48,512 nucleotides of DNA from Candidatus Shapirobacteria bacterium CG03_land_8_20_14_0_80_40_19 (GCA_002780305.1 PEVD01000028.1:1-48512), one strand, 5' to 3'. Positions 473 through 12,662 are shown, numbered from the stretch's first letter. Translations and numbers: made by a program. The notes: generated by a model not told the origin, from the sequence alone.

Positions 473-2746
473 TTAAGACAATCCGGTAATCCGGTCAACG
501 ACCAACTGCCTGAATTCCGGAGAAAGACTGGCAAAATAGGCGCTGAAACCGGTTACCCTTACGATTAAGCCAGGGTATTTCCAAGGGTCCTTATTGGCTT
601 CCAGTATTTGTTCTTTATTTAAGACATTTAAATTGATTTGCGTCCCGCCGTCTTTAAAGTGAGTTCTAATTAAATTTTCAAGAATTATGACTAATTCATC
701 GCTGGGCATCAACCCCGGATCAACTTCCAATTGTAAAGGAGCGGTATTGCCCCAACCAAGCTGCTTGTTTACATTGGCAACGGCGTTGCTTAAGGCCGTT
801 AACGCTTCGTCGCGCCTGAATCCCGGATCCGGATTGGATCCGTGTGAGATTTTCTCTCCTGCCTTGCGGCCATTGGGAGTTGCCCCCAGGACTTTCCCCA
901 TCGGAATCGTATTGGCCCAACTAAAAACGCCCGGAAGCATATTGTAACCATGAGGGGTCTTTTTTTCTCTTATCAGTTCAGAGAATGTTTTGGCTACTTT
1001 TTCCGCCCAATTATCGGCATCCGTTCCACCGGTGCCGTAACGGGGAATACGATTCATCATCAGTCTGATTCTTTCTCCTTCGGGTCCTGCCCAATCATTT
1101 TTTAGGTACTCGGCAATTTGGTCCCAGGTAAGCTTTTTTTCTTTCTCTACTCTTTGGCTTAAGGCGGCAAAGGAATCGGCGACCGTCGCCAGAGCCGCCC
1201 CGTCAACTCCTAGGTTAATAAATTCAACTCCGCCTCCGGAAGCATCGATTCCTTTTTCAATCGGTCCGTCGCAAAGCAGGTCCAAAACCAGTTCCGGAAA
1301 GACCTTTTGCATATTTTCAATCTGGAAATCAATGCTTTGGGCGGTCGCGTCAACAGCAATCCGCAAATGGTCTTGAAAATAAGTCCACAATCTTTCCGTA
1401 CTCGGGGAAGCTTCTTTCTCCATCATGTCTTTAAAGGCGACCTCAAAAACTTTGCCGAAATTTATTTTTACACAGTCGTTTAGGGTATATTCTTTTCCCG
1501 GAATGGCGGACCAATGACAGCCGGAGTAAACTCTTTGCCGGCAGACTTCCAAAGGATAACCGTTCCTGGCAAATTCCCTTATCGTATTGTCGATGGCCAA
1601 GAATTTAGGCATAGCGGTTTTGTCCTCAACCATAATTTCAAGTCCTCTTTGAAGCAGTTTCGGATCAACGCTTTCCCCGACGCAAACTCCGATATTGGCC
1701 GGAATTTTCAGCCGGTGAGCCGCTTCCAAAACCATAAAAGAAACCTCATTGGTCGTGTCTTCGCCTTTTTCGTTTGGTCCGCCAAGCTGGATATAACCGG
1801 TGTCTTTTATCAAAAAACAGGTGATATGGAAAATGGCCTCTTCTTTATCAATTCTTCCTTCTATAAAATCCTTTTCATAAAAAGGCGTCAGTAGAGCGTC
1901 CAGTCTGCCCAGAGAACCGCTGCCGTTGTACATCCTGGCCGCCATTTGATACCAGGTCATCCATTGGCAGGCTTCGCGGAAAGTTTCCGGCGGTTGGTTG
2001 ACAAGTTTTTCATTCATCGTTGCCATTTGAAGTAAGTTTTCTCTGATTGCCGGATCGGTTTCTTTTTCCGCCATCGCTCTTGCCTCTGCTACATTGTGAG
2101 TGATCCAGGCCTGGATGCCAACCGCCACGTTTTCCAGGGCGGTTAAAAATTCAATTTTGTCGGGATTGGCTTCTTTTGAGATTCTGATTTTATGCAGAAT
2201 TCCCTGCCAGCCGATATCAAGACCGATGGCCAGGTCTTGGCAAAAATGCTGGGTGGCGCCGATGGCGCCGACCAGCTCATATTTTCTTCTGACATCAAGC
2301 AGGTCTTGGGGAATTTTGATATCGGGATTCCAGCCCGGTTCACGGTAAGAATTGAAATTGACCATATAACCGCCGAGAAGTGAACTTTGGGGATCAACAT
2401 AAGGAGGATGGTTTTCCAGTAAACGGCGGAAATTTTTTCCGACCATTTCCGCTCCGAAAAATCCGCCGGAGGAATGATTGCTTTCTATGCCCAAGTGTTC
2501 ATCATTCTTTATTCTTATGTCTGAAATTTCCACTCCGGAACCGCTTACCGCCTTAACTACTTCTCTTCTTTCCTCCGGAGGAGGGATAATGGCGAGATCA
2601 TCAGAATCCAAAAAACCCGATAATTCCCGTTTTTCCCGGTTATGTCTTAATTTTGTCTCAACCAGTCCTTGGAGCCTCTTCGCGTAGCTAAATTCTTCCG
2701 TTATCGGAGCTTCAGGGCCGGAGACCGTCAGTGTTTCCTTGGTCAT
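473..2746 (-). CDS. Glycyl radical enzyme (PFL-like superfamily), substrate unknown
   Basis: C-terminal glycyl loop LIVRVTGFSAYF, GATPNGRKAG motif, PPETFREACQ motif, catalytic Cys loop SGCHW. ATG at 2746 preferred over TTG at 2776. Confidence 0.9.
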   Translation of the reverse strand: MTKETLTVSGPEAPITEEFSYAKRLQGLVETKLRHNREKRELSGFLDSDDLAIIPPPEERREVVKAVSGSGVEISDIRIKNDEHLGIESNHSSGGFFGAEMVGKNFRRLLENHPPYVDPQSSLLGGYMVNFNSYREPGWNPDIKIPQDLLDVRRKYELVGAIGATQHFCQDLAIGLDIGWQGILHKIRISKEANPDKIEFLTALENVAVGIQAWITHNVAEARAMAEKETDPAIRENLLQMATMNEKLVNQPPETFREACQWMTWYQMAARMYNGSGSLGRLDALLTPFYEKDFIEGRIDKEEAIFHITCFLIKDTGYIQLGGPNEKGEDTTNEVSFMVLEAAHRLKIPANIGVCVGESVDPKLLQRGLEIMVEDKTAMPKFLAIDNTIREFARNGYPLEVCRQRVYSGCHWSAIPGKEYTLNDCVKINFGKVFEVAFKDMMEKEASPSTERLWTYFQDHLRIAVDATAQSIDFQIENMQKVFPELVLDLLCDGPIEKGIDASGGGVEFINLGVDGAALATVADSFAALSQRVEKEKKLTWDQIAEYLKNDWAGPEGERIRLMMNRIPRYGTGGTDADNWAEKVAKTFSELIREKKTPHGYNMLPGVFSWANTIPMGKVLGATPNGRKAGEKISHGSNPDPGFRRDEALTALSNAVANVNKQLGWGNTAPLQLEVDPGLMPSDELVIILENLIRTHFKDGGTQINLNVLNKEQILEANKDPWKYPGLIVRVTGFSAYFASLSPEFRQLVVDRITGLS

Positions 2747-3125
2747 CAAAGAAAGTTTAACACCTTTTTTAACCAAAAATCAAACGGTTAACCGGAAGCC
2801 AAAAAATTTGGAGGAAGGACTGAAGATGGCGATGGCGTATTCCGGGTCCGGCAGTATCTGTTATGCCGGTGTTTGCTTAATTCACCCAAGATTCGGCGAA
2901 GTGGTTGAAGTCTCAGAAACAAAAACTAAAATGCAGTCGTTTTTCGAGGAAGAATTGAAGAAATTGGTTGACGATAAATTTTTACTGCGGTCGGGGGCAT
3001 TGGGGATTTCCGAAGAAACCGCCGGTTTTACTTTAGTGGAATCCCTGTCCGGCTCTTATACCGGTCCTTTCGGTTTGCCGATGGAGATTGTCAGAAAATA
3101 TCTGAAAGAGTGGGAATTGGTTTAA
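2739..3125 (+). pseudogene. Maf-family nucleoside-triphosphate pyrophosphatase, N-terminally truncated
   Basis: The C-terminal part matches the Maf pattern (RKPKNLEEG..MAMAYSG, GALGI, VESLSGSYTGPFGLPM). The N-terminal LAS.SPRR segment is absent and there is an in-frame TAG at 2685-2687. Confidence 0.65.
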
Positions 3126-3166: not shown

Positions 3167-3817
3167 TTAAGAAAGGGCATTTTTTAAGATTGAAAAAGCG
3201 CGGGAAATTTCTTGGCTTTCTAAAATAATTGTAAATTCCGAAAAAGTTGAAACCACTTCAACGACATTGATTCCCTCCCAGGCCAGAAATTTTAGAATCG
3301 TGTAGTAGACTCCGGGGGTCAAGACATTTTTTTCCGGCAAACGGATCGTAATTGAAGAGAGGTGGTCAGGCTGGTAAATAATTTTTTCTCTTTCTAAAAT
3401 CGCTTTAACTTTATCTTTTAACTCACGGCTGACAATTATTGTGGTTTCGAAAATTCCCTGCGTTATCGTTAAAAAGTTTCTATTTTGGTTTTCGACCGCC
3501 TCAATAATTTTTTTGTGTTTTTCCGGAGAAAAGCTTGAATTTAAAATCGTAAATTCCAACAGATTTGATCTTAAGATTAAATCATGGTTTTTTTCCAAAA
3601 CACTGTCAACTTGAAATTTGGAGGCTAATGTCTTTGGCCGTCTTTTTAGAGCCATAAGAACTGCTCCCTCCCGAACCTCTTTAAAGGTTTCTTTTCTTAC
3701 CTCCGGTAATATCTGTCTAGCTAAAGCAGAAAGATTAATAATTCCGCTGTTGATGGCCTCCTCTAAAAAAGATTTTTTTTTAATGATTTGGTCTACTGCA
3801 TTAGATACGGTTATCAT
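3167..3817 (-). CDS. ACT-domain protein with helical N-terminus (putative amino-acid-sensing regulator, no kinase domain)
   Basis: C-terminal ACT repeat (TPGVYYTILKFLAWEGINVVEVVSTFSEFTIIL) and N-terminal GIINLSALAR helix motif. Divergent from lysW. Confidence 0.7.
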   Translation of the reverse strand: MITVSNAVDQIIKKKSFLEEAINSGIINLSALARQILPEVRKETFKEVREGAVLMALKRRPKTLASKFQVDSVLEKNHDLILRSNLLEFTILNSSFSPEKHKKIIEAVENQNRNFLTITQGIFETTIIVSRELKDKVKAILEREKIIYQPDHLSSITIRLPEKNVLTPGVYYTILKFLAWEGINVVEVVSTFSEFTIILESQEISRAFSILKNALS

Positions 3818-3818
3818 T

Positions 3819-3896
3819 TGTTAAAAAATTAACATTTTTTATTAAATTTGTCAATTGTTATTAAAAATTTGACATAGCCTGACAGATGCTTATTAT
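3819..3896. promoter_or_regulatory. Divergent sigma70-type promoters and candidate operator
   Basis: + strand: TTGACA 3869-3874, N16, TATTAT 3891-3896. - strand: TTGACA 3854-3849, N17, TAATTT with upstream TG. Inverted repeat TGTTAA-N4-TTAACA at 3819-3834. Confidence 0.6.
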
Positions 3897-3927
3897 TAAA
3901 AAAGTTATTATTTATTTATTTAAATCT

Positions 3928-4110
3928 ATGTCAAAACTATTCTCTATTTGTCCGGTCTGTGATGCCCAGGTTGTTCTTGCCGAAGGAGTGGAAGAATCGG
4001 AAATTATCAGTTGTTCCGATTGCCGCTGCCGGCTGGTGGTGGAAAAAATAGAAAAAAATACGGCCGCTTTAACTAAAGCGCCCGAAGTTGAAGAGGATTG
4101 GGGGGAATAA
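3928..4110 (+). CDS. lysW: Amino-group carrier protein LysW
   Basis: 60 aa, two CxxC motifs (CPVC, CSDC) and the diagnostic C-terminal EDWGE. ATG at 3928. Confidence 0.95.
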   Translation: MSKLFSICPVCDAQVVLAEGVEESEIISCSDCRCRLVVEKIEKNTAALTKAPEVEEDWGE

Positions 4111-4115
4111 ACCTT

Positions 4116-4967
4116 ATGCCGACAATCGGACTATTTCATTCGACGGTTAGAGCCGAGGAAAAGCTGATTATCAGAGCCGCCCGGGAGAAAAAAGCGGGCA
4201 TAAAACTGATTGATATCAGAAATGAAGTTTTTAATCCGCTGCATTACCGCCCCGATTTTGACATTGCCCTGGAAAGGTCGGTTTCTACGGTTAAAGGGGG
4301 GTATGCAACAGAATTTTTGGAAGCGCTTGGGGCGGTGGTGATTAATCCGTCCGGGGTGGCGAGAATATGCGAGGATAAATTTTTGACTTCGTTGGCTCTT
4401 CAAAAAACCGGTGTTCCCACTCTAAAATTTGCCATGGCTTTTTCCTTGGAGCAGGCAATGGCGGCGGTTGCTGATTTAGGCGGATTTCCGGTAGTGGTTA
4501 AACCGCCTCTTGGTTCTTGGGGCAGAATGCTGGCAAAAGTTAACGATAGAGATTCTCTTGAGGCCATCATCGAACACAAAGACGTACTGGGCTCACCTCA
4601 ACAAAAGGCTTATTATTTGCAGGAATATATTCAAAAACCCGGCCGGGATATTAGGTCGTTTGTGGTCGGCGGTGAAACAATTTGTGCTATTTATCGTACT
4701 TCTTCTCATTGGATAACTAATACCGCGTTGGGTGGAAAAGCGACTAATTGTCCGGTAACTAAAGAGCTTTCGCAACTTTCCCTGCAGGCGGCCAAAGCAG
4801 TTAGGGGTGGAATTTTGGCGATAGACATTATTGAGACATCCGAAGGATTAAAAGTGAACGAAATAAACCATACCATGGAGTTTAAAAATTCTGAGGAGCC
4901 GACAGGCGTTAGTATTTCCGGAGCGATTGTCGATTACTGTTTGCAAAAAATTAATAGCAATGATTAA
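4116..4967 (+). CDS. lysX: ATP-grasp alpha-aminoadipate--LysW ligase
   Basis: RimK-like motifs VVKP..GSWGR, LQEYI.KPGRDIR, WITNTALGG and NEINHTMEFKN. Adjacent to lysW. Confidence 0.92.
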   Translation: MPTIGLFHSTVRAEEKLIIRAAREKKAGIKLIDIRNEVFNPLHYRPDFDIALERSVSTVKGGYATEFLEALGAVVINPSGVARICEDKFLTSLALQKTGVPTLKFAMAFSLEQAMAAVADLGGFPVVVKPPLGSWGRMLAKVNDRDSLEAIIEHKDVLGSPQQKAYYLQEYIQKPGRDIRSFVVGGETICAIYRTSSHWITNTALGGKATNCPVTKELSQLSLQAAKAVRGGILAIDIIETSEGLKVNEINHTMEFKNSEEPTGVSISGAIVDYCLQKINSND

Positions 4968-6003
4968 TGTTTCTATTATCGGCGGTTCAGGTTATGCAGG
5001 TGGAGAGCTTTTAAGACTGCTTGCTTTTCACCCGAAAGTAAAGGTTAAACAGGCAACCAGCATGCGCTTTGCCGGCCAACCGGTCAGTCTTGTTCACCCC
5101 AACTTAAGGGGCGTTTGTGATTTGGTTTTTTGCGGGTTGGAAGAGCTAAAGCCATGTGATCTGCTTTTTGTGGCTTTGCCCAACGGTGAATCAATGGATT
5201 TAATGGCGAATTTTATGAAATTATCGCCAAAAATTATTGATTTAGGCGCTGATTTTAGATTACAGGACGAAAAAATCTGGGAAAATTATTATCATACCCC
5301 TCATACAAAATCCGCGTTGCTAAAAAAATTCGTTTACGGTGTTCCCGAAATTTATGCCGAGCAAATAAAAAAGGCTGATTATGTGGCCGGACCGGGTTGT
5401 GAAGCAATAGTCTCAATTTTATGTCTTTACCCCCTTATTAAAAACAATTTGATAAAAGAAGAGCCGATTATTGTTGATGCCAAGATGGGGAGTTCTCAGT
5501 CGGGAAATAAACCCAGCTCGTCTTCTCATCATCCGGAAAGAGCCGGTGCCGTTAGATCATATCAACCTGTCGGTCATCGGCATGCGGCCGAGATAGAACA
5601 AGTTCTTAATCAATTTGGCCAAAAGGTGACCGTTAATATTTCGGCAACAGCGATCGAAATGGTCAGGGGGATTTTGGTTACCATTCACACTTTTTTAAAA
5701 AAAGAGGTTGAGGAGAAAGAAATTTGGAAAATTTTACGAACCGAATATGGTGAAAAACCTTTTGTGCGGATTGTTAAAAAAAAACAGGGGCTTTACCGTT
5801 TTCCCGAACCAAAAATTTTACAAGGCACAAATTATTGCGACATCGGTTTTGAAAAAGAATCGAAAGGCAGTCGCCTGGTTGTTTTAGGGGCGATTGACAA
5901 TTTAGTTAAAGGCACCGCCGGTAATGCGGTTCAATGTCTGAATTTAATGTTTGGTTTTGAAGAAAGTTTAGCCTTAGAGTTTCCGGGCTTGCACCCGATA
6001 TAA
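4960..6003 (+). CDS. lysY: [LysW]-aminoadipate-6-phosphate reductase (ArgC family)
   Basis: GGSGYAGGELLRLL, PGC catalytic Cys, SSHHPER, AIDNLVKGTAGNA and C-terminal FPGLHP. Confidence 0.92.
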   Translation: MINVSIIGGSGYAGGELLRLLAFHPKVKVKQATSMRFAGQPVSLVHPNLRGVCDLVFCGLEELKPCDLLFVALPNGESMDLMANFMKLSPKIIDLGADFRLQDEKIWENYYHTPHTKSALLKKFVYGVPEIYAEQIKKADYVAGPGCEAIVSILCLYPLIKNNLIKEEPIIVDAKMGSSQSGNKPSSSSHHPERAGAVRSYQPVGHRHAAEIEQVLNQFGQKVTVNISATAIEMVRGILVTIHTFLKKEVEEKEIWKILRTEYGEKPFVRIVKKKQGLYRFPEPKILQGTNYCDIGFEKESKGSRLVVLGAIDNLVKGTAGNAVQCLNLMFGFEESLALEFPGLHPI

Positions 6004-6004
6004 A

Positions 6005-7228
6005 ATGAGAATAAATTTTAAAGGTTTTATTGACACGACCTTAAGAGACGGTCAATCGTCACCCTTACTTTATGATACTTATAAATACCGGTTTTCTTTG
6101 GCAGAAAAGAAACAGATTGTTAATGCGCTGCTTAAGCTGGGCGTGCGTTTCTTTGAATTTTATTCGCCGGTGGTAAGCGAAGAAGAAAGGAAAAGTTTTC
6201 TGATCCTGAAAAAATACATTAAATCTTTAACCCCGGAAAAAACTTATCTCCTTGCTCACTGCCGTTGTCATCCGCTGGACATTCAGACTGCCCTAGGACT
6301 TGGCTTTGACGGTTTGAATTTATATATGGGACTTTCCGAGGAAGCGCAGGAAAACTATGGAAAAAGTTTACGGCAATTGTCGGATTTAATTGGAGAAATC
6401 GTCATATCGACCAGACAGAAAAATCCTTTGCTTTGGTTAAGATATAGCGGGGAAGACGCTTTCCGCACCTCCTTAAAAAATCTCTTTTTAGTCTATGATC
6501 GGATTGCGCAGTATGTTGATGCTTTTGGTTTTCCCGATACGACCGGAACAGCCACGCCGGAAAAAGTGGGGCAAAGAGTAAGAGCTTTTAAAAAACGGTA
6601 TCCAAAAGTTAATCTGGAATGCCATTTTCATAATGACCGAGGGTTATCTTTAATAAATACAATGGCCGCGGTTAAAAATGGGGCAGAATTTATTGACAGT
6701 TCTATTTGGGGCATGGCAGAACGGTCTGGAATTACTTCAGTCACTGGTGCTTTGCTTAATTTTTACGAGATAGATAAGAGTTTGGTGAAGAATTTTAATC
6801 TGCAATTTGCTTATCCCCTGAATGTTTTAATGGCTTCAATTTTGGGCTGGCAGGTGCCATGGACCGAACCGGTTTCTTTAACTAATCGGACCCACATTGC
6901 CGGTGTTCACCAGAAAGCGGTTTTGGGGCATAAAGGTTATGAAGCTCACCAGCTGGAAAAATTTGGTATTACTAGCCAGCAGCTGCTTTTAGGCCCTTTA
7001 AGCGGCTGGAACTTTATCTATTATTTCTTGAAAGAAATGGAAAATTATATTATTACTCCGGAGGAAGCGAAAATAATAACGGCTGATTTTAAAAAACAAA
7101 CCAAAAAATTAGGAAAGAAAATTAAACCGGAAGAGATTTTAAACCAGTTGGCAAAATCTCATTCCTTAACAAGAACTTCCATTCCAAAAAAATTTGCTGA
7201 CAAAAGAAAGGAGAATTTAGGGATATGA
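6005..7228 (+). CDS. Homocitrate synthase (fungal/Thermus-type DRE-TIM)
   Basis: DTTLRDG, HCRCH, RYSGEDAFR, ECHFHNDRG, ERSGIT, HIAGVHQKA and SGWN parallel the lysine-pathway HCS motifs. Operon context agrees. Confidence 0.82.
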   Translation: MRINFKGFIDTTLRDGQSSPLLYDTYKYRFSLAEKKQIVNALLKLGVRFFEFYSPVVSEEERKSFLILKKYIKSLTPEKTYLLAHCRCHPLDIQTALGLGFDGLNLYMGLSEEAQENYGKSLRQLSDLIGEIVISTRQKNPLLWLRYSGEDAFRTSLKNLFLVYDRIAQYVDAFGFPDTTGTATPEKVGQRVRAFKKRYPKVNLECHFHNDRGLSLINTMAAVKNGAEFIDSSIWGMAERSGITSVTGALLNFYEIDKSLVKNFNLQFAYPLNVLMASILGWQVPWTEPVSLTNRTHIAGVHQKAVLGHKGYEAHQLEKFGITSQQLLLGPLSGWNFIYYFLKEMENYIITPEEAKIITADFKKQTKKLGKKIKPEEILNQLAKSHSLTRTSIPKKFADKRKENLGI

Positions 7229-8025
7229 TTATTGTCAAAGCCGGCGGCGGCAGTAATATTAATTGGGATTTTATTGCCGAAGATTTAGCCAATCTGGTAA
7301 AAAAACGAAAATTCGTGGTTGTCCATGGAGCTAGCCGGCGGCGAGATGAAATTGCCGAAAAACTAAGTTGCCCGACAAAAACAATTATTTCTCCTTCCGG
7401 CGTCAGCAGTGTTTATACGGACAATGAAGCTCTGGCTATTTTTTTGATGGTTTATAGCGGGCTGGTTAATAAACAGATCGTGGCAAAAATGCGGTCGTTT
7501 GGTCTTGATGCGGTCGGTTTATCCGGGGTGGATGGAGGACTTTGGAAGGCAAAGGCCAAAAAGGAAATTTTTGTTAAAGACGGGGATAAAACCAAGCTGA
7601 TAAAAAATAACTTAACTGGCAGGGTGGAGGAAATTAATACCAAATTAATAAATCTTCTTTTGGGAAGTGGTTACTTACCGGTTATTTGCCCGCCGGCAAT
7701 CAGTTTTGAGAATGAAATTGTCAATACCGACAATGATTGGGCGGCGGCGGTGATGGCCGGTCAGCTGGAGGTAAAAGAGATTGTCGTTCTTTTTGAAGCG
7801 CCGGGTTTGTTAAGAGATCCGAAAGATGAAAAAACCAAAATTAGCCGGATAGAAAAAGAAAAACTGGCAGATTTTTTGGTTTATGCGCAAGGCCGGATGA
7901 AGAAAAAGATATTAGGAGCGAAAAAAGCCTTTGAATTAGGGGTGGAAAAAATTTATTGGGGTGACGGCCGGATTAAAAATCCGATCATTAATGCTCTTGC
8001 CGGAAAAGGGACAGTTATCGAATAA
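7225..8025 (+). CDS. lysZ: [LysW]-aminoadipate kinase (ArgB family)
   Basis: MIIVKAGG, VVVHGAS, SPSGVSSVYTD, GLSGVDG and GRMKKK. Confidence 0.9.
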   Translation: MIIVKAGGGSNINWDFIAEDLANLVKKRKFVVVHGASRRRDEIAEKLSCPTKTIISPSGVSSVYTDNEALAIFLMVYSGLVNKQIVAKMRSFGLDAVGLSGVDGGLWKAKAKKEIFVKDGDKTKLIKNNLTGRVEEINTKLINLLLGSGYLPVICPPAISFENEIVNTDNDWAAAVMAGQLEVKEIVVLFEAPGLLRDPKDEKTKISRIEKEKLADFLVYAQGRMKKKILGAKKAFELGVEKIYWGDGRIKNPIINALAGKGTVIE

Positions 8026-8027
8026 AA

Positions 8028-9188
8028 ATGAAAGACTATCAGTATTTACAACAGAAATATTTAGTCAACACTTATCCTAACCGCGGGCTTGTTTTGACAA
8101 GAGGAAAAGGGGTCTATCTTTATGACCAAAACGAAGAAAAATATTTAGATATGATGAGCAATTACGGCGTAAATATTTTTGGTTATAATCATCCGTATTT
8201 GTTGGAAAAACTATCAGATCAGTTAAAAAAACTTATCACCCTTCATTGCAGTTTTAACAATGATACCCGCGCCATGTCAGCTGAAGCCTTGGTAAAAAGA
8301 TGCGCTGGTGGTTTAACTCAGGTGTATTTTTCTAATTCAGGAACGGAAGCGATTGAGGCAGCTTTGAAATTTGCGGTTTTGGCAACAGGTAAAAAGAAGT
8401 TTATTGCTTGTAATAATGCTTATCATGGTAAAACACTGGGAGCTTTGTCCGCAACCTCGGGAGAAAAATATCGGGCGCCTTTTGAGCCGTTGTTTTGGAA
8501 CTTTAAGCACATTGCTTACAACAATCTTTTAGAATTAGAAAAGGCAATTGATGATCAAACGGCGGCATTTATAGTTGAACCGGTTCAAGGTGAAGGGGGA
8601 ATAATTTTACCCGATGATAACTACTTGACTAATGTGAGGAAAATTTGTGATCGAGCAAGAATATTACTCATACTGGATGAGATTCAAACCGGGGTTGGTC
8701 GAACAGGATATTTTCTTGCCTCCGAAAAAGAAAAAATTAGCTACGACATAGTTTGTCTGGGAAAAGGATTGGCAGGCGGGATTCCGATCGGGGCGAGCTT
8801 GGTTTCTCAAAAAGTTGCTTTAAAAATTCCCAAACTGATACACAGTTCGACTCTTGGCGGTAATCCCCTTGCCTGCGGGGGAATATTAGCGATTTTGGAA
8901 TTGCTTGATGAAAAAACGTTAAAAAAAGTTGGCCGGTTAGGAGATTATTTTATTCAACAATTAAAGACAGTTAAGTTGCCATTGGTCAAAGAAATCAGGG
9001 GTAAGGGTTTAATGATTGGTGTCGAGCTGGACGACAAAAGAAATGAAATTTTAAGACAGTTGCAAATTAATAAAATTTTAGCAATACCGGCAGGGGAAAA
9101 TGTCGTCCGTTTTCTCCCTCCCTATACTATAGAGAAAGAAAATATTGATCTGGTGATAAAAAAGTTAAAAGAAATACTAAATGTGTAG
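8028..9188 (+). CDS. lysJ: [LysW]-aminoadipate semialdehyde transaminase (class III PLP)
   Basis: NSGTEAIEAALK, YHGKTLGALS, EPVQGEGG, DEIQTG.GRTG and GKGLAGG. Confidence 0.88.
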   Translation: MKDYQYLQQKYLVNTYPNRGLVLTRGKGVYLYDQNEEKYLDMMSNYGVNIFGYNHPYLLEKLSDQLKKLITLHCSFNNDTRAMSAEALVKRCAGGLTQVYFSNSGTEAIEAALKFAVLATGKKKFIACNNAYHGKTLGALSATSGEKYRAPFEPLFWNFKHIAYNNLLELEKAIDDQTAAFIVEPVQGEGGIILPDDNYLTNVRKICDRARILLILDEIQTGVGRTGYFLASEKEKISYDIVCLGKGLAGGIPIGASLVSQKVALKIPKLIHSSTLGGNPLACGGILAILELLDEKTLKKVGRLGDYFIQQLKTVKLPLVKEIRGKGLMIGVELDDKRNEILRQLQINKILAIPAGENVVRFLPPYTIEKENIDLVIKKLKEILNV

Positions 9189-9846
9189 ATTTTTACTCGC
9201 TAAATTTGAAAATCCAACAAAACCGGAAGAATTATTGAAAGAATTTTCTTCGATGGCAAAAAAGTCTAAAGCTTATGATGGAGATTGGCAGGGAGACGGT
9301 TGGGGAATTTCCTGGGTTGACGAAAAAGGTCTTTGGCAAACAAGAAAATCTTTACTCCCGGTTTGGGAAGAGGGAAATACTTTTGAGAGTTTCCCTAAAA
9401 CATTAATTTTGGCGGCTCATGCCAGAAGCGCTTCTTTTCCGAATCAAAAAGGTGTCATTGAATACAATCAACCCTTCGTGGACGAACCTTACGTTTTTGT
9501 TTTTAACGGTTTGTTGAAAAAAGTTTCTCTTTCTTCGCGAATACCCGGAGAAATCGGCAGTCAAAAAATCTGGTTTTTGTTAAGAAAGCTGTTGAAAAGA
9601 TTACCGCCGTTAGAAGCTTTAAAAAAAGTTAAAAATGTTTTGCGTGAAGGCGCGGTTGATCTTCAGGCTCTTAATATCGGTTTGTGTGACAAAAAAAATC
9701 TTTATCTTTTAAATTATTATTCCCAATATCCGGATTATTACCGGCTGTACCTTTTGGATCACCTTGGCAAAAAAATAATTTGTTCAGAAAAACTGGTAGG
9801 GTTTGATGATTTTAAACCATCACCACTGATTGTCCTAAAGTTGTAA
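9181..9846 (+). CDS. Class II glutamine amidotransferase-like Ntn hydrolase (YafJ/EgtC/Dug3-like)
   Basis: N-terminal MCR (Cys nucleophile), DGWGI, AHARSAS, NQPF and FVFNG. Overlaps the lysJ stop by 8 nt. Confidence 0.85.
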   Translation: MCRFLLAKFENPTKPEELLKEFSSMAKKSKAYDGDWQGDGWGISWVDEKGLWQTRKSLLPVWEEGNTFESFPKTLILAAHARSASFPNQKGVIEYNQPFVDEPYVFVFNGLLKKVSLSSRIPGEIGSQKIWFLLRKLLKRLPPLEALKKVKNVLREGAVDLQALNIGLCDKKNLYLLNYYSQYPDYYRLYLLDHLGKKIICSEKLVGFDDFKPSPLIVLKL

Positions 9847-10521: not shown

Positions 10522-10553
10522 ATCTCCGCTTGAAAATTGGCGGAGATTTCTTT
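10522..10553 (+). terminator. Hairpin followed by T-rich tract (terminator of the ATP-cone gene or fusA leader hairpin)
   Basis: ATCTCCGC/GCGGAGAT stem followed by TTCTTT. Confidence 0.45.
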
Positions 10554-10565
10554 AATGACAAAATT

Positions 10566-12662
10566 ATGGCGCAAATAACCAAAACAACACAAAGAGACGT
10601 CCCTCTGGATAAAGTCCGGAATATCGGCATTATCGCCCATATTGACGCCGGTAAGACTACGACTACCGAGCGGATCTTGTTTTATACCGGCAAGACTTAC
10701 AAGTTGGGTAATATTGATGACGGAACCACGGTGACTGACTGGATGGATCAGGAAAGGGAAAGAGGCATCACCATTGTTTCGGCGGCAATTACCACTTTTT
10801 GGAAAGAATGCCGTATCAATATCATCGATACCCCCGGCCACGTTGATTTTACCGCCGAAGTGGAGCGGTCGCTGCGGGTTTTAGACGGCGGGATTACCGT
10901 TTTTGACGCCGAAGAAGGCGTCCAGTCCCAATCAGAAACAGTTTGGCGCCAAGCGGACAAGTATCATGTCCCCCGGTTAATCTTTTTGAATAAAATGGAT
11001 AAGCTTGGGGCCAACTTCAAAGGAACTTTGGAAATGATTAAAGACCGGTTGGGGGTAAAATTGGCAGTTTTGGCTTATCCGATCGGGGCGGAACAAAACT
11101 TTAAGGGGCTAATTTTACTTTTGGAGAAAAAAGCTCTCTATTGGGACCAGGATGCCACCGGCATTAATTTCGAGGAAAAAGAAATCCCCGCCGAGATGCA
11201 GGCAGAGATTGCCCAAGCCCGGCATGAGCTGATTGAACAGATTTGCGCCGAAGATGAAACCTTACTGGAAAAATATTTGAAAGGAGAAGAGCCAACCCTG
11301 CCGGAATTAAAAGCTTCTTTAAGGCAGTCCGTCATTGCTTATAAATTGGTCCCCGTTTACAGCGGTTCTTCCCTGCGTAATAAAGGAGTCCAGCCGCTTC
11401 TTGACGGAGTAATCGATTTTCTTCCCTCTCCTTTAGATGTCCCCCCGGTTTTAGGCATTAATCCTAAAACAGGAGAACAGGAATCCAGAGGGCCAACAAA
11501 AGAAGAACCGCTTTCCGCCCTGGCTTTCAAAATCCAGGTTGACCCGCACGTAGGAAAATTAACTTATTTGCGGATTTATTCCGGAGTATTGAAAGCCGGT
11601 TCCACTGTTTACAATTCAATCAAAAAAGATGAGGAAAGAATCGGCCGTTTGCTTTTAATGCATGCTGATAAAAAGGAAGAAATTATGGAAGGATACGCCG
11701 GTGAAATTGTGGCGGCCATTGGGTTGACCAAAACCGGTACCGGCGATACGCTTTGCGACCATACCAAACCAATAATACTGGAGTCAATTAAGTTCCCCGA
11801 GCCGGTGATTTCTCTGGCAATTGAGCCGAAAACAAAGGCGGATCAGGAAAAATTAGGCCTTGCTCTCAACCGTCTTGCCGAAGAAGACCCGACTTTTAAA
11901 GTAAAAATTAATCATGAAACCGGCCAGACGATTATTGCCGGAATGGGTGAGTTGCATTTGGAAATTTTGACGGAAAGAATGAGGCGTGAGTTTGGCGTTG
12001 ACGCCACCACCGGCGCCCCCCAAGTTGCCTACAAAGAAACCATTACCAAAATTGCCGAGGGTGAGGGTAAATATATTCATCAATCGGGAGGCCATGGCCA
12101 GTATGGTCATTGTTGGCTGAGGGTTGAACCAAAACCGAGGGGCGAAGGCTATGAATTTGTTTCAGAAGTTAAAGGCGGGGCGATCCCGGCCAACTTTATT
12201 CCGCCGATTGAAAAAGGAGCCAAAGAAGCGATGGAAAACGGAGTTTTAGCCGGTTTTCCCGTAGTTGATGTGAAGGTAGTTGTTTATGACGGGTCATTTC
12301 ATGAGGTCGATTCTTCGGAAATTGCTTTTAAAATTGCCGGGTCGCAGGCGCTCCGGACGGCGGTGCGAAATGCCGGTTTGACCCTGCTTGAGCCGATCAT
12401 GAAGGTGGAAGTGACCACCCCGGAAGAATTTATGGGTCCGGTAATCGGCGATCTTTCCAGCCGGAGAGCGCAAATAATGGGGACGGAAATCCGGGGGAAT
12501 GCCAGAATTGTTATCGCTTTAGTCCCGTTGGCGGAGATTTCCGGATACTCAACTACACTGCGCAGTTTGAGCCAGGGAAGGGCCAATTATTATATGGAAC
12601 CTTCGCATTACCAGGAGGTTCCCAAAAGCGTTATTGAAACGATTGTTGCAAAAAGAGCCTGA
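10566..12662 (+). CDS. fusA: Elongation factor G
   Basis: RNIGIIAHIDAGKTTTTERIL, DTPGHVDF, GMGELHL. ATG at 10566. Confidence 0.98.
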   Translation: MAQITKTTQRDVPLDKVRNIGIIAHIDAGKTTTTERILFYTGKTYKLGNIDDGTTVTDWMDQERERGITIVSAAITTFWKECRINIIDTPGHVDFTAEVERSLRVLDGGITVFDAEEGVQSQSETVWRQADKYHVPRLIFLNKMDKLGANFKGTLEMIKDRLGVKLAVLAYPIGAEQNFKGLILLLEKKALYWDQDATGINFEEKEIPAEMQAEIAQARHELIEQICAEDETLLEKYLKGEEPTLPELKASLRQSVIAYKLVPVYSGSSLRNKGVQPLLDGVIDFLPSPLDVPPVLGINPKTGEQESRGPTKEEPLSALAFKIQVDPHVGKLTYLRIYSGVLKAGSTVYNSIKKDEERIGRLLLMHADKKEEIMEGYAGEIVAAIGLTKTGTGDTLCDHTKPIILESIKFPEPVISLAIEPKTKADQEKLGLALNRLAEEDPTFKVKINHETGQTIIAGMGELHLEILTERMRREFGVDATTGAPQVAYKETITKIAEGEGKYIHQSGGHGQYGHCWLRVEPKPRGEGYEFVSEVKGGAIPANFIPPIEKGAKEAMENGVLAGFPVVDVKVVVYDGSFHEVDSSEIAFKIAGSQALRTAVRNAGLTLLEPIMKVEVTTPEEFMGPVIGDLSSRRAQIMGTEIRGNARIVIALVPLAEISGYSTTLRSLSQGRANYYMEPSHYQEVPKSVIETIVAKRA

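Follow-up and report, generated by a model that had tools for sequence, protein, structure and literature searches.

In the genome of Candidatus Shapirobacteria bacterium CG03_land_8_20_14_0_80_40_19, we have analysed an operon organised around the amino-group carrier protein (AmCP) LysW, in which a hydrolase of the N-terminal nucleophile (Ntn) type is found in the place of LysK, the M20 peptidase that releases lysine from the carrier. The operon lies at positions 3928-9846 of a stretch of 48,512 nt (GCA_002780305.1 PEVD01000028.1:1-48512), here called the window. The Ntn protein is probably a stand-alone Cys1 amidohydrolase that replaces the LysK step in LysW-mediated lysine synthesis via alpha-aminoadipate; in the same, probable reading, it hydrolyses the gamma-amide on the final residue of LysW, both to release lysine and to deamidate those LysW proteins that are encoded with a terminal Gln. 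The original prediction had put the Ntn protein in LysK's place as the enzyme that unloads LysW-gamma-Lys, and comparative evidence supports this: the mutual exclusion of the two enzymes, synteny, and the occurrence of Gln-ended LysW.

The window corresponds to contig C4 of a genome that is 96.3% complete and amounts to 715,774 bases, spread over 62 contigs; close relatives of its proteins carry the name Roizmanbacteria in public records. Calls of open reading frames (ORFs) in the window yielded seven closely packed genes at 3928-9846, all on the plus strand:

3928..4110, plus strand: lysW, amino-group carrier protein, 60 aa, zinc ribbon with four Cys, C-terminal EDWGE.
4116..4967, plus strand: lysX, ATP-grasp ligase loading alpha-aminoadipate on LysW (TIGR02144, 313.8 bits; cut-off, 275.6; GSWGR motif).
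4960..6003, plus strand: lysY, [LysW]-aminoadipyl-phosphate reductase, ArgC family (TIGR01850, 385.6 bits; cut-off, 233.6).
6005..7228, plus strand: HMGL-like or homocitrate synthase (HCS)-like gene, divergent in sequence (PF00682, 134 bits; HCS_D2, 38.5 bits).
7225..8025, plus strand: lysZ, [LysW]-aminoadipate kinase, overlapping the HCS-like gene by 4 nt (NF010659, 289.4 bits; cut-off, 223).
8028..9188, plus strand: lysJ, class-III aminotransferase (PF00202, Aminotran_3, 345 bits, E 6e-103; TIGR00707, 389 bits, just below the cut-off of 410).
9181..9846, plus strand: candidate [LysW]-gamma-glutamyl amidohydrolase, Cys1 Ntn protein with a class-II glutamine amidotransferase (GATase)-like fold, 221 aa, assigned from its model, motifs and synteny.

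The tight coupling of lysW-lysX-lysY-HCS-lysZ-lysJ and the 8-nt overlap with the Ntn gene, as originally described, agree with these ORFs and their junctions: lysX and lysY overlap by 8 nt, and the ATG of the Ntn gene lies within the final codons of lysJ, which it overlaps by the same length. The carrier itself is recognised by PF21344 (32.9 bits against a cut-off of 27: weak but specific) and by NF041070 (51 bits), while it scores under the cut-offs of the NCBIfam LysW models. Its zinc ribbon is combined with the C-terminal EDWGE, which PMC10433800 gives as the LysW C-terminal motif, the terminal Glu bearing the substrate.

The absence of an M20 peptidase (lysK) from the window, noted in the original prediction, stands, and the whole-genome search that had been proposed as a check gave nothing either: neither PF01546 nor TIGR01902 has a match in the 715,774 bases (96.3% complete), and three M20 proteins taken from related loci, used as tblastn queries, reached a best E of 1.6. 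In control genomes, PF01546 matches 14 out of 14 and TIGR01902 matches 12 out of 14. The Ntn protein has itself no M20 match (TIGR01902/NF003367), so that it would be at most an analogue of LysK and not a member of its family. Since lysA and the gene for dihydrodipicolinate synthase (DHDPS) were searched for in the same genome and neither was found, the operon is the sole lysine-related module seen there. Amongst other hosts of Ntn-type operons, lysA is over its cut-off in G403 and G404 and was not found in G417, G630 and G415; the diaminopimelate route may, therefore, coexist in some of them, with no bearing on the release step.

We have surveyed the distribution of the two enzymes in 301 sampled genomes of the phylum to which the Aminicenantes-labelled genome G404 belongs (hereafter, the second phylum; the same set was searched three times). 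LysX was found in 33 of them (E ≤ 1e-60), the Ntn profile matched in 18 (E ≤ 1e-49), and LysK was over its cut-off in 17; six further genomes, all without LysX, gave only weak Ntn matches (43-54 bits). The mutual exclusion that the original prediction had suggested looking for is complete among the 33 LysX genomes: 17 have only the Ntn gene, 16 have only LysK, none has both and none lacks both. One of the 17 (G556) is flagged as unpublished, and its exclusion leaves 16 and 16 of 32. One Ntn genome (G432, with a partial gene) and one LysK genome (G638) are without a LysX match. In the phylum of the window, LysX is over its cut-off in six of 401 genomes, four of which (G000, G047, G084 and G107) have the Ntn gene without a LysK-class gene, one (G273) has LysK only, and one (G072) has both. 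In another five genomes with the Ntn gene (G401-G405), LysK stays under its cut-off, the best match scoring 50 bits against the 163 required.

We fetched 22 Ntn loci: the window; eight loci (L001-L008) from sources labelled Aminicenantes, Acidobacteriota, “uncultured Clostridia” and Roizmanbacteria; four from the window's phylum (L026-L028 and L030); and nine from the second phylum (L065-L072 and L076). In 20 of the 22, the gene lies inside a run of LysW-pathway genes, and it does so in three gene orders. In the first, a divergent ACT-domain gene is followed by W-X-Y-(HCS)-Z-J-Ntn; in the second, the same divergent gene precedes W-(HCS)-X-Y-Ntn-Z-J; the third, in G047, is a complete aminoadipate cluster, X-?-HCS-aconitase-aconitase_C-Iso_dh-Ntn-W-X-X-J-Y-Z. 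One of the two exceptions is G072, where the Ntn gene stands beside HCS, some 4 kb from lysX on the opposite strand; the other (G107) is considered further below. The LysK-type operons L073-L075 read W-X-Y-Z-J-LysK; that is, LysK sits after lysJ in the slot that the Ntn gene takes in the window.

The G047 cluster (L026, contig C63, 3423-14934, minus strand) extends over 11.5 kb and includes three LysX paralogues, a Gln-ended LysW, LysJ, LysY, LysZ, HCS, homoaconitase-like large and small subunits, an Iso_dh ORF of 230 aa (possibly truncated) and a 240-aa ORF without a Pfam match. In the Aminicenantes-labelled locus L004 (111-19882), the Ntn operon is embedded in an amino-acid biosynthesis supercluster in the order trpF, trpB, trpA, a PALP enzyme, the operon, aspartate kinase, HcyBio, asd, a second PALP enzyme and pheA; lysA is over its cut-off in that genome. 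Locus L003 (G403), labelled “uncultured Clostridia”, was sampled in the same phylum as the Aminicenantes-labelled G404, and its label may be wrong.

An alignment of LysW from Ntn-type loci revealed that many of these carriers end in EDWGQ directly before the stop codon. Among 21 genomes with the Ntn gene only, LysW ends in Gln in 12 and in Glu in nine, whereas none of the 14 LysK-only genomes has a Gln-ended LysW and all 14 have Glu. The first tally leaves out G508, G566, G401, G084, G107 and L007, where LysW was not found in the fetched DNA; the second leaves out G273 (LysW not found) as well as G536 and G608 (no locus fetched). In a phylogeny of LysX, the terminal residue switches between Glu and Gln seven times among 21 Ntn rows. 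In parallel, we scanned metagenome contigs with a DNA pattern for EEDWGQ plus stop, in which the Ntn gene played no part, and obtained at least 80 loci. Fifty of the 80 listed loci have a LysW-like ORF and 30 do not (chance matches); of the 50, 35 end before the genes of interest. The other 15 listed loci hold lysY and either lysZ or lysJ, and every one of them has the Ntn gene; an M20 homologue was found in none of the 80.

The ATP-grasp ligase LysX needs a carboxylate, and a terminal Gln cannot be activated; a Gln-ended LysW must therefore be deamidated, for which the operon's own enzyme with a glutamine-amidohydrolase fold would be the obvious agent. Since Gln-ended LysW occurs only with the Ntn gene, the Ntn protein most likely acts on the gamma-amide of the last residue of LysW. 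Priming alone is insufficient, however, because the gene is retained in nine genomes with Glu-ended LysW (those of the window, L002, L008 and six others). A single enzyme for both tasks would be the most economical reading: nine such genomes, including that of the window with no M20, keep the Ntn gene, and it is only alongside this gene that the last codon of lysW shifts between Glu and Gln. The mechanism that we propose would run as follows. After removal of the initiator Met, the exposed Cys1 would attack the gamma-carbonyl of the C-terminal residue of LysW; the leaving amine would be lysine, from LysW-gamma-Lys, or ammonia, from nascent Gln-ended LysW; and water would resolve the gamma-glutamyl thioester to regenerate LysW-Glu for LysX. 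One active site would, in this manner, prime Gln-encoded carriers and release the product, comparable to Dop acting on Pup. The substrate, both activities and the significance of the active-site change described below are inferred.

All motifs by which a Cys-Ntn hydrolase had been recognised in the original prediction (MCR, DGWG, HARSAS, NQPF and FNG) are present in the protein, as M1-C2-R3, D39-G-W-G42, H80-A-R-S-A-S85, N96-Q-P-F99 and F108-N-G110; the Cys follows straight after the initiator Met, as in an N-terminal nucleophile. Of 74 aligned family members, at least 90% keep M1, C2, R3, H80-A-R82 and N109-G110. An AlphaFold2 model built on 74 relatives (predicted local distance difference test, pLDDT, 97.3; predicted template modelling score, pTM, 0.92) has the four-layer alpha-beta-beta-alpha Ntn fold: in a Foldseek comparison with the PDB, the top ten matches are EgtC chains (template modelling score, TM, 0.75-0.80; approximately 18% identity), followed by 3mdn and the glutaminase domains of GlmS and PurF, with a probability of 1.00. 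A profile search of the PDB found 3mdn (E 2.2e-11, residues 24-219) and EgtC (E 1.3e-6). At the level of curated families, the protein remains below the thresholds: it scores 12.9 bits (E 0.052) against Pfam GATase_4 (PF13230; gathering threshold, 23), for which some relatives have a precomputed match, and 26.9 bits against the NCBIfam EgtC equivalog (TIGR03442; cut-off, 218.65). Its neighbours in the Protein Atlas are “class II glutamine amidotransferase” clusters only. The family is compact, with 774 proteins at E ≤ 1e-3 in 90% clusters and 284 clusters at E ≤ 1e-3 in an exhaustive search of 1.84 billion representatives.

In the profile alignment, HAR82 and N109-G110 of the family align with “VRSA” and “HNG” of EgtC. 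We take the Asn-Gly pair to be the oxyanion hole and the Arg (here, R82) to be the residue that binds the substrate alpha-carboxylate in class-II GATases; both are conserved. A third element differs: the “T-D-S-E-V” segment of 3mdn aligns with “i-G126-a-q-K129”, so that the Asp of the class-II “DSE” is replaced by Gly126 (at least 90% of the members have G126 and K129). In class-II GATases, glutamine is bound by this Asp through its free alpha-amino group, and the change to Gly would fit a substrate in which the alpha-nitrogen is engaged in a peptide bond. A canonical GlmS or PurF start, sought in the window's own genome for the “DSE” alignment, was not found there.

Two kinds of apparent fusion were considered and set aside. 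A 477-aa record (P0248) with an Ntn N-terminus and a LysZ-like AA_kinase part most likely results from a frameshift in a gene called on a GC-rich contig, since out-of-frame stretches rich in Arg separate the two parts and also follow the second; it would count as further evidence for the adjacency of the Ntn gene and lysZ only. Open frames of 548-562 aa around the Ntn gene in G630, G484 and G508 are not fusions with lysY, tblastn putting the two genes in different frames.

As to the product, lysine is likely for the window operon, because of the LysX signature, the model matched by LysZ, and the full aminoadipate cluster with an Ntn gene in G047. Aligned to Thermus LysX (3vpd/1uc8), the window LysX is ungapped in the relevant stretch and has F182, I192, T203, N258 and S259, as well as its GSWGR motif; F-I-T-NS is the aminoadipate-specific “LysX type” signature of PMC12998189. 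The original prediction had left open LysW-gamma-Lys or -Orn: lysine is favoured, and ornithine (for arginine) is the less likely product in view of this signature, of the [LysW]-aminoadipate kinase model being the best match of LysZ, and of the lack of an ornithine transcarbamylase (OTCase) gene in the window's own genome. In G484 and G508, separate ArgC/ArgD/ArgB-like paralogues adjoin the operon.

Several observations weigh against the proposed role and its evidence. The original prediction had named a bona fide lysK elsewhere in the genome and homologous clusters with both genes as refuting it; none of the 33 LysX genomes of the second phylum has both enzymes, and two partial cases came up elsewhere. 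G072, with three lysX genes, has the Ntn gene and two LysK-class genes on different contigs; it is uninformative as a within-genome control, the lysK genes being alone on their contigs. In L006 (Roizmanbacteria), a 369-aa ArgE/DapE-family M20 and a GNAT-like gene lie directly upstream of lysW; this M20 scores 133.7 bits with TIGR01910 and 71.5 bits with the LysK model TIGR01902, against a cut-off of 163. The interval between the ACT gene and lysW (3463-5790) holds the GNAT-like gene, the overlapping M20 and, on the opposite strand, a second LysW-like zinc-ribbon ORF that ends in EEED, without the WG(E/Q) tail. Furthermore, an M20 in L071 (G508) stands beside the ArgD/ArgB paralogues, approximately 3 kb from the operon, and generic M20s occur elsewhere in the other four Ntn genomes of the window's phylum and in G401-G405. 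These generic M20s are possible release enzymes.

The evolutionary sample is also narrow. In the LysX tree, which has 45 rows and was built with quick IQ-TREE, the Ntn-type operons are divided over at least two starred clades (12 and 11 rows), and the starred branches force only two changes between Ntn and LysK; a sign test is powerless, because only one to three independent pairs are available. The naive Fisher p of 6e-4 for Gln versus Glu ignores relatedness. Ntn-type operons differ from the LysK type in other respects, i.e., the in-operon HCS and the divergent ACT gene, so that the exclusion may in part stem from the existence of two operon lineages and not from the swap of a single step. 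In G107, the Ntn gene has an in-frame TAG and is isolated from pathway genes; at this locus (L030, contig C18, 6571-7239), no LysW-pathway gene was seen in the 17 kb fetched, and the homologue may be decaying. The interpretation of the Asp-to-Gly change depends on a single profile alignment, not a superposition, and on the residue roles of class-II GATases.

The supply of aminoadipate is a further difficulty: aconitase-family, Iso_dh and OTCase genes were not found in the window's own genome, so that of homocitrate synthase, homoaconitase and homoisocitrate dehydrogenase only the divergent HCS-like gene is at hand. Aminoadipate could be taken up, or its genes could lie in the missing ~4% of the genome. 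The label “HCS” of the original prediction holds as to homology (PF00682) and lacks the backing of any curated model, the gene being under all such cut-offs (best NCBIfam model, TIGR02146, 180 bits against 413.6). It is approximately 31% identical to the in-operon HCS of L002-L005, while the rest of the operon is 57-68% identical.

Structure prediction of the complex, also proposed with the original prediction, turned out weakly in favour of an interaction. Ntn(2-221) with LysW scored 0.49 (runs of 0.49, 0.45 and 0.61), where the best of three controls reached 0.02; the runs agreed in at least 95% of contacts, with a partner pLDDT of at least 73, and returned no contacts. The benchmark mark is reached by 58 of 80 solved complexes and two of 110 mismatched pairs, although at scores of 0.60 or lower only seven of those 80 reach it, along with both of the passing mismatches. 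The model, which beats its controls, would give weak support to a LysW-Ntn complex, and that this support is weak counts amongst the reservations.

One alternative, which we hold to be unlikely, is that the Ntn protein only primes the carrier by deamidating Gln-ended LysW, release being left to a generic ArgE/DapE-type M20 or to an unrecognised hydrolase. This would agree with the confinement of Gln-ended LysW to genomes with the Ntn gene, with the presence of some M20 in most Ntn genomes other than that of the window, and with the ArgE/DapE-type M20 adjoining the operon in L006. It has to face the window's genome, where LysW ends in Glu, the Ntn gene is translationally coupled to lysJ, and there is no M20; moreover, nine of the 21 Ntn-only genomes have a Glu-ended LysW and keep the gene, and a LysK-class gene occurs in none of the 17 Ntn-type genomes of the second phylum.

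Still less probable to us is an amidase for small molecules, be it a glutaminase of free glutamine feeding glutamate to LysJ/LysN or a hydrolase of a gamma-glutamyl metabolite, with a merely metabolic link to the operon. The class-II GATase fold and the catalytic set are those of such an enzyme, and relatives of the EgtC and 3mdn types act, or are presumed to act, on small molecules. Neither the exclusion of LysK nor the confinement of Gln-ended LysW to Ntn operons would be explained, however, and the “DSE” Asp, which holds the free alpha-amine of glutamine, is Gly126 by alignment.

It is very improbable that the Ntn protein serves to edit or recycle the carrier, by hydrolysing off adducts that are mis-loaded or stalled (e.g., LysW-Glu), instead of being the main release enzyme. 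The predicted chemistry is the same, and Thermus LysX mis-loads glutamate at less than 10% of the aminoadipate rate, as reported in PMC12998189; yet, LysK-type systems manage without such a factor, and the window's genome would remain without a release enzyme. Hardly credible, finally, is a gene without functional meaning that hitch-hikes in one or two successful, horizontally spread operon lineages: the independent Ntn/LysK contrasts are few and the operon is patchy (six of 401 genomes in the window's phylum), but the link persists through three gene orders and approximately 30-50% protein divergence, the Ntn gene overlaps its neighbours, and its catalytic residues are conserved. We retain a release enzyme that also deamidates LysW as the probable function.

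The remaining features of the region concern its borders and its possible regulation:

473-2776, minus strand: pyruvate-formate-lyase (PFL)-like glycyl-radical enzyme, 767 aa, with PFL-like and Gly_radical domains, upstream of the operon.
3167..3817, minus strand: ACT-domain protein, 216 aa, divergent from lysW (weak ACT_9/ACT_7 matches).
3869..3896, plus strand: promoter-like site 5′ of lysW, TTGACA-16-TATTAT, 11 of 12 consensus matches.
10530-12662: EF-G, downstream of the operon.

The glycyl-radical enzyme upstream and EF-G downstream make the boundaries of the operon clear. The promoter-like site is a consensus match only; 19 such sites were found where 14.9 are expected in shuffled sequence. 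Rfam and tRNA scans of the window gave no match, so that no lysine riboswitch is recognised in it. The ACT gene is divergent from lysW in L002-L006, L065, L066 and L069-L072, all Ntn-type operons from two phyla, and it recurs in nine listed metagenome loci (L081, L088, L098, L117, L124, L127, L128, L141 and L150); none was seen beside the LysK-type operons L074 and L075. With neighbours in the Atlas that are “Aspartate kinase family protein” and DUF7523 clusters, the ACT protein probably regulates the operon by sensing an amino acid; this could be lysine, or the protein could serve LysZ or HCS as a regulatory subunit.

Three known enzymes are comparable to the Ntn protein, which is a member of neither the EgtC nor the LysK family: EgtC for its fold and chemistry, LysK for its role and Dop for its logic. 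LysK ([LysW]-lysine hydrolase; M20, ArgE/DapE family; TIGR01902/NF003367) has the reaction proposed here, cleavage of the amide between the gamma-carboxyl of the LysW Glu and the alpha-amino group of lysine, and the slot after lysJ, and it occupies the alternative set of LysX genomes. It is a di-metal M20 enzyme, whereas the Ntn protein would work through a Cys1 thioester; the folds are unrelated, with no detectable relation in sequence. An M20 would not be expected to deamidate a terminal Gln, and Gln-ended LysW is found with LysK in none of 14 genomes. EgtC (gamma-glutamyl-hercynylcysteine sulfoxide hydrolase; PDB 4zfj/4zfk/4zfl), the best structural match (TM 0.75-0.80), is close to the Ntn protein in size and is, like it, a Cys1 hydrolase of the class-II-GATase-like kind that stands alone; the bond that EgtC cleaves is a gamma-glutamyl amide, and the DGWG, (V/A)RSA and NG motifs are common to both. 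At approximately 18% identity, it differs in context (egt genes rather than lysW-X-Y-Z-J) and in substrate, a free gamma-glutamyl compound as against the proposed protein C-terminus. The SPO2029-type class-II GATase-domain proteins (PDB 3mdn; GATase_4, YafJ-like) include the closest solved relative by profile, but 3mdn keeps “TDSEV” where the Ntn protein has “iGaqK”, and the latter is under the Pfam threshold.

Dop, in the Pup-proteasome system, is both deamidase of Pup and depupylase. In Pup, it is the gamma-carboxyl on the C-terminal Glu that does the work, and the encoded end may be Gln or Glu; Dop deamidates the Gln form and also cleaves the gamma-glutamyl-amine bond. The logic by which one enzyme deamidates a Gln-ended small protein and cleaves its gamma-glutamyl amide would, hence, be the same. 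Dop has a glutamine-synthetase fold, is nucleotide-dependent and acts on isopeptides to protein lysines, whereas the leaving group of the Ntn enzyme would be a free amino acid; the likeness is one of analogy, not of homology. With rather less assurance than for the release function, we favour a broader view in which LysW is a Gln-ended pro-carrier that cannot be loaded until the Ntn enzyme deamidates it and from which the same enzyme later frees lysine, the Pup/Dop logic having been reinvented convergently in amino-acid biosynthesis; by way of the thioester, the carrier could even be transferred to amines without the use of ATP.

In the full-text literature searched, to which subscription journals and supplements do not belong, LysW/AmCP is not linked to a class-II GATase or an Ntn hydrolase, and Gln-ended LysW is not described; the supplements of GapMind could bear on this novelty. 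In a term search of GapMind 2026 (PMC13759103), LysK is named only as a diverged Nitrosopumilus enzyme. The LysW pathway itself is known, and what would be new is a version with a non-homologous release enzyme and a Gln-encoded pro-carrier.

If this reading is true, it would fill an apparent “missing last step” of lysine biosynthesis in genomes with this operon, including Aminicenantes-, Acidobacteriota- and Roizmanbacteria-labelled ones; tools for pathway reconstruction would otherwise rate these as auxotrophic for lysine. It would also be a clear instance of non-orthologous displacement, in which a thiol Ntn hydrolase takes over from a metallopeptidase and the substrate is bound to a protein. 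For the engineering of carrier-protein pathways, a release enzyme that needs no metal would become available. Amino-group carriers would be encodable in an inactive Gln form, adding a priming step, new to LysW/AmCP systems in the literature searched, and perhaps a point of control. At the same time, a function would be assigned to one branch of the GATase_4/EgtC-like family, which is poorly understood.

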